Assembly (NCBI RefSeq): GCF_004010195.1
Contig: NC_057759.1
Location: 7,427,593 to 7,472,257, forward strand
Length of the DNA: 44,665 nt
Direction: 5' to 3'
DNA from: Chiloscyllium plagiosum
Lineage: Eukaryota
The notes beneath the pieces were generated by a model. The model was not told the origin of the DNA, ran no database searches, and saw only the letters and a program-made list of their open reading frames with translations. Of this stretch, positions 14,669-17,600 are shown piece by piece (within the stretch, counting starts at the first letter, position 1; each line of letters opens with the position of its first letter). The position numbers were made by a program, and so were the translations under genes.

Positions 14669-17600
14669 CAGCGGAAGGCTGAGGTGGAGGTGGGAAGCCC
14701 ACAAGGTACAGGTAAGCCCCTTTCCTTTATGCTTTGCAATGAAGACTCGCTTATGCTAATCTCTTCTACTAACCTTACGGGCACTGAGACATGTCCCACC
14801 TCTATCTTGAGCATTGAGATTGTGAAGCGTGGCCAGAATGTTTAATATGACAATGATGCGTATACATCGATGTCTACCTCTCTGTTATGTGTGGAAGGTA
14901 CACAAGTTACCTTTTGGTAGATACAGGGGCAACAAATTCAGTCCTTAAATTAAGCCAGTTTAAACAATCGGCGCAAATAAAGAGATGAGTGGAAGGTTCC
15001 CGAACACAATGGGTGCATCAGCAGTTGTGGTGCAAGGGAGATTTTCTGCAACCCTATTGTTTAAATCTAGTAACAGTAAAACATTCCAATTCTTCTTGTT
15101 ATCCAAATTCTGCCCTTTAAATCTGATGGGTCGTGATCTCATAGGGAGTCTGGGGTTGGACTTGTTCAGTTCTCCGACAGGCTTGCAGGTAATTCAAAGG
15201 GAAGATTTACCAATGCAGGCTGTAAAATACGACCCACGACCCCTGATGTATGTCTATGAGTGGCGATTAAGCCAGAGATAAGTTCAGTGAGCAATTCACT
15301 CACCCTGGAAGCAACCATGTTAACCCTGTTAACACCGATTTTCTCGCTGGGGACATGTTGCACTGCACAACACACATAAACCACAATGGCCCTGACGAAC
15401 CACATGAGAAGGATTGGCTCAGGAGATTGGTTAAACCAGATCAGTTGTTATTGTGCGAATTTCATTGGAGTGATCACAGATGTGCAGTCAGTGTGAACTT
15501 ATGTAAGGTACCTGTAACAGCAAGTAGACCCCGTCTTTTTGATGTGGAAGGCTCCACTCCTCACGTATCGCTGGTGAAGGCGTTCGATGACGGGTGGCAG
15601 GATTTGGAACCATGAGTGCTAAAGTCAAAAATAACGAAAGATTGGGTCCTCAGTTACGATGTGGGTATCTGGTTCAATGCAGGTATGCGAACATATAAGA
15701 AGAAACTAAATTGGCTTACTCAGGCAGACAGGACAGTCCAGAGAACACCCGCTAGCGCTGACAAGCCTAGGACGGTAGCCTGGCGTTTCCCTAAGATAGA
15801 AGAGTCGGACTCAAGATTGAAAACGCTCCCTACTAGTTGTGGGCAGAAGGCAAACACGATCTGGGACCTATACTGGACTGTGAACCCATAACAATAAACC
15901 TGAAGTCTGAGTATCGTCCTTGCAGAGCACAATACCCGTTAAAAACCGAAGCTTTAGAAGGAATTACTCCAGTCTTGGAATCCTCCTAAAGACTGGAGTG
16001 ACAACCCCCTGTGAAAACTCATCAGTGAGAACCCCCATGGTTCCAGTCAAAAAGGCAAACATTCCCAGTGAACTGGAGGAATGGAGGTTGGTTCAGGACC
16101 TGCAGGCAGTCAATTATGCTCTTGTCCCATGCGCCCCAAATGTTCCCAACCCCTATACTATATCAGCTCAAATTCCACCGGACAGGAAATGGTTCTCTGT
16201 TGTGGATTTAGCAAATGCCTTCTTTAGTGCACTGGTGCAGCCAGATAGTCGATTCTGGTTCGTCGTTTTTTTATTCAGAGGGAAATCATATACATTTCCA
16301 CGATTTGTCAAGGTTGCTGTGAGTTCCCCCATCATATATAACGAGGCACTATGCAGAAGTCTGGAGACTTTTGCTCTAACGCCAGGCTGAGCACTTCTGC
16401 AGTATGTAGAAGATTGGTTGATAGCCGCACCGACAAAGGAACAATGTGAGAAGGATACCCTTGCGTTGCTATGCCATCTAGCGAGGAAAGGGCACAAAGC
16501 CAGTCTGGTAAAGCTATAATTTGTGCAACAACAGATGAAGTTCGTAGGTCACTTAATATCTGAACAAGTGAAGGCCATTGGACAAGACAGAGTTCAAGCA
16601 ATCCAGCAAATTCCAAAGCGTCACACTGTAGAATATTTATCCCATATTACGCAACCCTTGAGGCGCCCCTAAGTGACATCGCCCATGGCAAAGAGTTGTA
16701 GAACACGAGTCCATTGCAGTGGTCCCCAGAGGCCAAGAGTACCTTTGTTGAATTTTGAAAACGCGCTCCAAACTACACCTACACTGGGAATTCCGAATCC
16801 AAAGAAGCCTTTTCTGCAAACGGTAGATGACAAGCGTGGCTGCATGACATCTGTGCTGCTGCAGAATCGCGGGGGAAAATTGAGTTCAGTAGCATATTTT
16901 TCTGCTAAGCTCGACTGTGCAGTGGCAGGATTGCCTAAATGGCTGGAGCTGAAAAGGCTTTTGTAGCATCCAGGGATATGGTCGGCTTTGGTGAATTCTT
17001 CTGGTCCCACATGTAGTATGCTTACTGCTTTCCGAGCAAAAGACCACACGCATGTCGGCAGCACGTTGGCTCAGATATAATACTGTGCTACTAGTGATGC
17101 CTAACGTCACAAAAAAGCGATGTAACGTCCTTAACCCTGCTAGCCTTCTCCCCAGAGAACGAGACGGAGACCCACTTGATTGTGTCCCTGTATTTAATGA
17201 AATTTGCATCCCTAGATCAAATTTGCAGAATTCACCACTTCGGAATCCAGATATGGAGGGGTTTTTTTTGAGGATGGGTCAGCATTCAGGAAAAAGGAGT
17301 CAGGCCATAATTGTTTTGGGTATGCTGTAGTGACTACCCACAAGATAGTCTAAGCGGGTTCACTCCATTCTACTCTGTCAGCGCAAGCAGAGGAGCTGAT
17401 TGCCTTGACTGAGGCCTGTAAATTGGCTGAGGGAAGGTCAATTAATATTTACACCGATACCAGATACACATTCGGGGTTGTACATGATTTTGGAGTCCTG
17501 TGGAAACACAGTGTCTTCTTGACCTCCACCGAAAAGCCCATCACACACTGTGGCCTGATTTCTGACCTCTCTGGAAGCGGTCCTATTGCCTGAATCAATC

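Follow-up and report, generated by a model that had tools for sequence, protein, structure and literature searches.

A predicted CNPase-type 2H phosphoesterase domain in the pol gene of an amplified shark endogenous retrovirus family

The genome of the shark Chiloscyllium plagiosum contains a decayed endogenous retrovirus (ERV) whose pol region carries a block with two histidine motifs between the aspartic protease (PR) and the reverse transcriptase (RT), which raises the question of what this block encodes, whether it belongs to the virus and what it may have done there. A first-pass annotation of the window, the whole 44,665-nucleotide stretch of contig NC_057759.1 analysed here, had read the block as a CNPase-like 2H phosphodiesterase that served either as an antagonist of nucleotide-based immune signals such as 2-5A or as an RNA end-healing enzyme. 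Sources that were available as partial text are cited below as "in part".

The provirus and the block between protease and reverse transcriptase

The element at 12182-25509 is a decayed class I (epsilon-like) ERV of an amplified shark family. It has the traits of this group, namely the order LTR-gag-pro-pol-env-LTR, a stop read-through junction, an MLV-type RT and integrase and a TLV-type TM, and its features are the following (window coordinates).

12182..12580, + strand: 5' LTR, preceded by CAGAG at 12177-12181; truncated here by ~15 nt at its end and without a primer-binding site
12581..14665, + strand: leader and decayed gag, collinear at ~80% with other copies; gag assigned by position
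14666..14668, + strand: gag-pol junction stop (TGA, next codon CAG), in the pol frame; putative read-through site
14870..15220, + strand: aspartic protease, frameshifted; Asp codon of DTG at 14920, RVP match (from translation)
15222..15744, + strand: 2H phosphoesterase domain of predicted CNPase type, broken here; fold modelled from a sister copy that is naturally unbroken
15358..15372, + strand: first 2H motif, LHCTT, His at 15361 (from translation)
15559..15573, + strand: second 2H motif, PHVSL, His at 15562 (from translation)
15745..17700, + strand: reverse transcriptase, connection and RNase H, frameshifted; Pfam RVT_1 and RT_RNaseH_2
17701..18490, + strand: integrase, N-terminal part and core (rve, E 7e-11); contiguous with the C-terminal part in other copies
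18491..23869, + strand: later LINE insertions within the integrase, with esterase-like, endonuclease and RT fragments; missing from other copies
23870..24290, + strand: integrase, C-terminal part (MLVIN_C, E 4.8e-12)
24326..24898, + strand: env remnant, internally deleted; an N-terminal part that includes the beginning of an Ig V-set-like domain is fused to the TM tail (from translation)
25097..25509, + strand: 3' LTR, with a polypurine tract before it and CAGGG after it

The two LTRs are identical at 343 of 403 positions (K2P 0.153), and the CAGAG and CAGGG that border them probably represent a 5-bp target duplication (4/5 match). In sister copies the LTR end is complete and is followed by TGGGGGCTCGTCC, a primer site that we take to be of the tRNA-Pro type. 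The one frame scanned across the leader and gag region gave no gag Pfam match. Of 22 aligned gag-pol junctions, 18 have TGA as the stop and 20 have CAG as the codon after it; this pattern would point to read-through, which other class I viruses also use, and the unbroken pol frames of two sister copies, L007 and L012, begin directly after this stop. Pfam RVP recognises the protease with E 6.7e-4 on the window fragment and 4.6e-9 on L012, and the nearest solved structure to a sister-copy RT is that of MMLV RT (E 4e-15). The LINE fragments that split the integrase total about 5.4 kb, with an N gap at 21381-21834. Two other copies (L132 and L128) hold 1.2-1.6 kb of extra env at about window position 24614, with matches to V-set (E 3.9e-6) and TLV_coat (E 9.4e-11). 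For the block itself, no match was obtained in Pfam, either with the window translation or with single copies, nor in a PDB sequence search with single copies.

Translation confirms the earlier reading that LHCTT and PHVSL lie in one frame, 67 codons apart. Both His codons fall within the natural stop-to-stop frame 15271-15612 (114 codons; three-frame translation), and a scan of the window in all six frames finds no second H-phi-T/S-phi pair with a stop-free spacing of 55-95 codons. The annotation had placed the extra block correctly between protease and RT but had made it too short at ~160 codons, as it spans about 15222-15744 (~175 codons). It had also remarked on two intact His amid decayed pol, which the window copy does not bear out as a sign of selection. 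Here the block is broken by two frameshifting 4-nt deletions near 15277 and 15312 and by a stop at 15613-15615, and it agrees with the commonest residue per column in 145/173 codons (84%), compared with 75/93 (81%) for PR and 98/123 (80%) for RT. Selection on the His residues of this copy is rejected, the block being no better kept than PR and RT, and its 2H domain is dead, as decayed as the PR and RT around it.

Copies of the family and traces of constraint

A genome search with the His-bearing frame produced 594 candidates; 150 were scored and all of them match, at 59-78% identity, the window itself excepted. A motif-neutral sample was taken from 150 loci found by an RT fragment and comprised 70 of these (the top 30 and 40 more, mostly on chromosome-scale contigs), from which six near-duplicates were removed and 64 copies retained. 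The block is present in every one of the 45 RT-selected copies that reach the protease, and L007 (561 aa) and L012 (460 aa) offer natural unbroken frames that run from protease through the block into RT. A later, unrelated insertion with its own target duplication, which the annotation had raised as an alternative, is therefore rejected, and the block is an integral, fixed part of the family's pol. Throughout the 22 longer copies the block stands directly between PR and RT (in L034 the stretch lacks its 3' part), env is deleted to varying extent, and collinearity with the window reveals no extra domain between RNase H and integrase.

Mean pairwise identity among the copies is 86%, and 18 self-matches, of which two or three are probably not LTR pairs, show K2P distances of 0.00-0.20 with a median of 0.06; the shark substitution rate in PMC4422223 (in part) is an assumption. 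His1 is kept in 44 of 49 copies and His2 in 46 of 54, no better than the block's three remaining His columns (0.87-0.94). Both His are found together in 36/46 copies, and all four catalytic residues in 28/46. The exact identity of LHCTT to the CNPase motif, to which the annotation had pointed, is coincidental: the residue after LHCT is Ala in 45 of 49 other copies and Thr in two, so that LHCTA is the usual form and Thr a minority variant.

Private variants have pN/pS near 1 in PR, block and RT, which indicates neutral decay. Shared variants gave pN/pS of ~0.4 in all three regions, a value biased by recurrent transitions and CpG decay that was set aside and replaced by a stratified test. In this test the N/S ratio of non-CpG transitions is 0.42 for RT (p 0.003), 0.52 for PR (p 0.01) and 0.71 for the block (p 0.12), while transversions carry no constraint signal in block, PR or RT. 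Past purifying selection within the shark family is thus clear for RT and PR, and weaker and not significant for the block. Third codon positions are the most variable in all three regions and the commonest codon is never a stop in any column. Domestication by the host is rejected, only 3 of 48 block-covering copies being without stops and frameshifts when measured against L007. At 85% identity, one RNA run gave 23 reads, of which none reached 95%, another run gave none, and a contig set of guessed RNA type showed no enrichment over the block at the same identity.

Predicted fold, profiles and relatives

An AlphaFold (AF2) model of an unbroken sister copy, built from an alignment of 87 natural sequences, reached pLDDT 92.6 and pTM 0.88, compared with pLDDT 36 from the single sequence. 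Structural comparison by VIA gives Z 14-15.6 for CNPases, with human CNPase at the top (Z 15.6, rmsd 2.5 A over 160 aligned residues), 11.7 for the fungal Trl1 KIN-CPD structure 6u05 and 8.3-9.5 for bacterial CPDase/LigT; Acb1 (8.2), MHV ns2 (7.3), AKAP18 (6.8), rotavirus VP3 (5.5-6.2) and the penguinpox cGAMP phosphodiesterase (5.1) lie lower. 2H-type proteins fill the first 16 VIA rows (Z 6.1-13.9), with topoisomerases and others appearing from 4.1, and the top Foldseek rows are RICH and CNPase. Sequence profiles point in the same direction: goldfish RICH is matched in the PDB with a weak E of 0.002, hhalign against 108 CNP domains brings both motifs into register at E 3.8e-5, and the top ESM Atlas clusters contain tRNA_lig_CPD in 22% and 63% of their members, a recognition below the tool's threshold. 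The Trl1 CPD family of Pfam (PF08302) weakly matches 3 of the 87 alignment members (best E 0.0024), and the CNPase family (PF05881) has no match above cut-off on single copies or on the 87 members; a search of the genome with it recovered host CNP exons only, and the last exon of this gene matches the annotated protein of the bamboo shark C. plagiosum at 100% identity. By its predicted two-lobed fold the block is a 2H phosphoesterase of the CNPase branch, as the annotation had proposed on the motifs.

The model also has a helix (128-140) right after the strand of the second motif (117-123), at the position of CNPase alpha7 as judged by position rather than superposition. It aligns with the CNP segment that follows the second motif, with a Gly kept in 74/85 sequences, and alpha7 is reported to be absent from other 2H enzymes and tied to 2',3'-cyclic specificity (PMC4643303, in part). 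The CNPase ligand residues Tyr168, Phe235 and Arg307 correspond to mostly Val/Ala, Val/Ile and Val in the hhalign register, which is uncertain at 14% identity and which places an aromatic residue one position before the Tyr168 partner; these changes suggest that the pocket, and possibly the substrate, differ. A recent capture of the host's own CNP is rejected. The ERV profile scores shark CNPs at a mean of 7.3 bits (n=16) and other CNPs at 11.0 (n=92), BLASTP detects no similarity of the block to exon 3 of the host CNP, and with no special closeness to shark CNP any capture would have been ancient.

With an unbroken natural shark copy as query, HMMER found 126 relatives among 1.84 billion representatives (best E 1e-22 to 1e-24, 25-47% identity); two word-seeded protein searches, limited to the "longer" lengths, had returned none. 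Among 30 representatives looked up, 13 are named (12 teleost proteins and one metagenome record with a bacterial label, which is probably host contamination), 16 are nameless, and one further unnamed representative has Takifugu members. Protease and/or RT domains flank the match in 17 of 19 relatives scanned, and the order PR-domain-RT recurs in pol proteins of pufferfish, spiny eel, lumpfish, cardinalfish, wrasse and loach. The shark copies form a branch of their own in a quick tree (SH-aLRT 94), without a resolved sister.

Column counts over the 104 of 129 rows with at least 80 aligned residues show that the relatives keep His1 in 78/97, the Thr in 88/98, His2 in 85/90 and the Ser/Thr in 68/90, compared with a median column conservation of 0.36. 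Both His are present in 64 of the 83 rows covering both columns, and all four catalytic residues in 53. It is this deep conservation among relatives, and not the window copy, that constitutes the evidence for function. There are exceptions, since a teleost-type sub-branch has Gln in place of His1 and Pro in place of Ser, and one long pol protein (P0098, 1343 aa) has neither His, so that catalysis is dispensable in some lineages. Certain Trp/Tyr positions are conserved as strongly as the His.

Function in the living virus and comparison with known systems

In the living virus the block was likely a metal-independent 2',3'-cyclic phosphodiesterase acting on RNA ends or on free cNMPs. Expression by read-through of the gag-pol stop would yield small amounts of the enzyme, which would be packaged with Gag-Pol and either be cut free by the protease or stay fused to RT. 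Within the particle or the early replication complex, its two His would then serve as acid and base to open 2',3'-cyclic phosphates to 2'-phosphate/3'-OH ends; the substrates would be nicked viral RNA, tRNA or free 2',3'-cNMPs. Of the two functions first suggested, end healing is better supported than a role on 2-5A, since the predicted structure groups with CNPase and the Trl1 CPD and since ray-finned fish without OAS-RNase L host relatives that keep the motifs. Against this reading speak the identity to CNPase of only 12-16%, the apparent change of the ligand residues in the hhalign register, the relatives that lack catalytic residues and the weaker, non-significant constraint in the shark family. 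We know of no need for cyclic-phosphate opening in retroviral replication, and to our knowledge MLV-type viruses are without a 2H domain.

That the domain was mainly non-catalytic, as an RNA- or Gag-binding module or as a decoy against host CNP, is a doubtful proposition. It has a precedent in mammalian CNP, which binds Gag and blocks HIV-1 particle formation, a restriction of retroviral assembly for which catalysis is not needed (review PMC5758531, in part), and it would accommodate both the relatives whose pol frames are long but have lost one or both His and the strongly conserved Trp/Tyr positions. Yet HxT and HxS are kept in most lineages, the low amounts of Gag-Pol would hardly suffice for a stoichiometric decoy, and mimicry of the host's own CNP leaves no sign in the profile scores, shark CNPs being matched no better than others.

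It is unlikely that the domain was packaged to hydrolyse cyclic dinucleotides (2'3'-cGAMP) and so to blunt cGAS-STING sensing of reverse-transcribed DNA. Such activity is found in other viral 2H enzymes (Acb1, Z 8.2; penguinpox cGAMP phosphodiesterase, Z 5.1), the pocket residues are unlike those of CNPase in the hhalign register, and delivery with Gag-Pol would place the enzyme at the site of cDNA synthesis. The host range is compatible, and cGAS-STING exists in fish. However, the predicted structure is far nearer to CNPase and the Trl1 CPD than to any cGAMP hydrolase, a helix of the alpha7 type is described as restricting how large a substrate can be (PMC4643303, in part), and 2',5'-phosphoesterases do not cleave cGAMP (PMC8406329, in part). 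Rather unlikely, too, is the broader scenario in which fish retroviruses from sharks to teleosts package a CNPase-derived enzyme that moved between Pol and an Env loop and was re-tuned to destroy cGAMP; were it true, the incoming core would bring with it an enzyme, encoded by the retrovirus itself, that blocks cGAS-STING.

A 2-5A phosphodiesterase that antagonised RNase L in the manner of coronavirus ns2 or the rotavirus VP3 C-terminal domain (VP3-CTD) is quite improbable. The block has the 2H motifs and OAS genes form a cluster in the shark genome (15 exon matches, mostly on C25), while a KEN-domain search of the genome returned two loci, presumably IRE1-like by their motifs, and no clear RNase L. 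In a chimaera the OAS-RNase L pathway is functional, whereas ray-finned fish have lost OAS and RNase L together (PMC10400998, in part). Teleost ERV relatives nevertheless keep the motifs over deep divergence, so that 2-5A antagonism is unlikely as the conserved role and the analogy with ns2 cannot be a general one. Structure points the same way, the nearest neighbours of the block lying outside the eukaryotic-viral LigT group (ns2, AKAP18 and VP3 at Z 5.5-7.3 vs 14-15.6 for CNPase). Given the OAS genes, a secondary use on 2-5A may have existed in this shark.

It is most improbable that the block was a passenger, captured long ago and kept since it did no harm to the polyprotein: its constraint in the shark family is not significant, and copies that share gag or env deletions have spread as well, so that presence in copies alone shows no need for the domain, but catalytic columns are conserved at about 80-94% against a median column of 36%, and the stop-free commonest codons and variable third positions described above also speak against it.

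The shark domain can be compared with several known systems. What is new is the cartilaginous host, which the annotation had anticipated as a possible novelty, and the structural placement; the architecture is already known from bony-fish retroviruses. In agreement with the annotation, a CNPase or macro domain occurs in some epsilon-like ERVs of ray-finned fish, according to a 2016 review that cites Basta 2009 and names no such domain for cartilaginous fish in the text available (PMC4977317, in part), and a 2H/CNPase domain in fish retroviruses is credited to Mazumder 2002 in a review that names WDSV among the carriers (PMC9503650, in part). The literature searched yielded neither a report of a 2H domain in an ERV of cartilaginous fish, where a prior mention is possible, nor a functional test of a retroviral 2H domain; by word search, "phosphodiesterase" is absent from the available text of an elephant-shark ERV paper (PMC4422223, in part) and a zebrafish ERV survey (PMC8672886, in part). 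The shark occurrence implies that the domain was acquired very early or that it spread between fish classes. The main gain is a narrowed function, the predicted structure standing beside the RNA end-healing enzymes CNPase and Trl1 CPD, and this function could bear on the natural substrate of CNPase and on why some retroviruses carry an extra pol enzyme.

The closest counterpart is the 2H domain of fish retroviruses and teleost epsilon-like ERVs, to which the shark block is linked by sequence homology, by the order PR-domain-RT and by the motifs LHC[TS]x and PH[VI]SL; it differs in its shark host, in a motif spacing of 67 codons as opposed to mostly 57-63, and in that all shark copies examined are decayed. 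In a viral structure library the three best matches are long polyproteins, the second and third being those of walleye dermal sarcoma virus (WDSV) and walleye epidermal hyperplasia virus 1 (E 1.8e-6 and 1.7e-5, TM 0.63-0.66), and both walleye records are labelled as envelope polyprotein. WDSV Env has a cytoplasmic loop of ~170 aa (aa 875-1044; PMC3185748, in part), a size that would fit, and we infer that the walleye 2H domain sits in this loop, that the domain moved between pol and env and that it would lie inside the particle in either position.

Beyond the retroviruses, vertebrate CNPase and fish RICH (PF05881) share with the block the best structural match, the LHCT motif and the helix at the alpha7 position, whereas the block is 12-16% identical to CNPase and is without the kinase-like N-domain and the membrane anchor. 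The fungal Trl1 CPD (PF08302) resembles it in structure (Z 11.7 with 6u05) and as the top ESM Atlas family, but works together with kinase and ligase domains, neither of which the shark ERV encodes. MHV ns2, MERS NS4b, rotavirus VP3-CTD, AKAP7 and Acb1 have the 2H fold and the paired H-phi-S/T-phi motifs in common with the block, and the viral members among them are virus-encoded as it is; ns2, VP3, AKAP7 and Acb1, however, belong to another structural branch (Z 5.5-8.2) than the shark domain.

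Deletions and the 2H block across the ERV family

Among the 22 longer copies of the ERV family that were compared, an identical env deletion (window-relative env 93-551) occurs in eight, drawn from the set L117-L136, L033 and L034, and a gag deletion is likewise common to many copies of this set. Since many copies carry the same env and gag deletions, defective sublineages have spread. The 2H block is present in all of the copies compared (22/22), the deleted sublineages included. One contig of run X7, a set of guessed RNA type, skips window positions 15043-15916 and thereby lacks the 2H block together with parts of PR and RT.

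Among the protein relatives of the block, catalytic motifs are degenerate in P0025, P0026, P0034, P0012 and P0098, the changes being His to Gln and Ser to Pro or, in P0098, a 1343-aa pol, the loss of both His. In a quick tree, three of these relatives form one branch (SH-aLRT 88) that is nested among rows with intact motifs.

The provirus and its surroundings

The window LTRs (12182-12580 and 25097-25509) share only ~70% identity with those of other copies, the internal region 80-88%, and the two differ from each other by a K2P of 0.153, larger than in most copies. They possibly represent an older or different LTR subfamily. The integrase is interrupted by:

18491-23869, LINE fragments in a nested arrangement (an ORF resembling a GDSL esterase, an endonuclease and two pieces of RT)

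LINE-like flanks seem to enclose the provirus itself, too. Elsewhere, positions 1-9400 hold a degenerate G-rich minisatellite whose unit measures about 32-33 bp and whose GC skew is strong. The segment 41006-41448 is directly duplicated at 42361-42804, near-identical (99-100%) and 1355 bp apart; either it was duplicated in tandem recently or the assembly is at fault here.

Host OAS and KEN-domain loci

The shark genome contains:

G000:C25:15317927-15378388, OAS cluster of about three genes

A KEN-domain search of this genome returned two loci, with no clear RNase L among the matches; judged by a motif, both are presumably IRE1-like.

A V-set domain in env

An immunoglobulin V-set domain (in copy L132, Pfam E 3.9e-6) forms the start of the family env; the window env retains no more than the beginning of this domain. 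The region lies at:

24326-24613, window
L132:2396-2758, minus strand
L128:7105-7392, plus strand

This domain is probably a second host capture in the family; against PDB, the region weakly matches TCR alpha, CD300/CMRF35 and PD-1.
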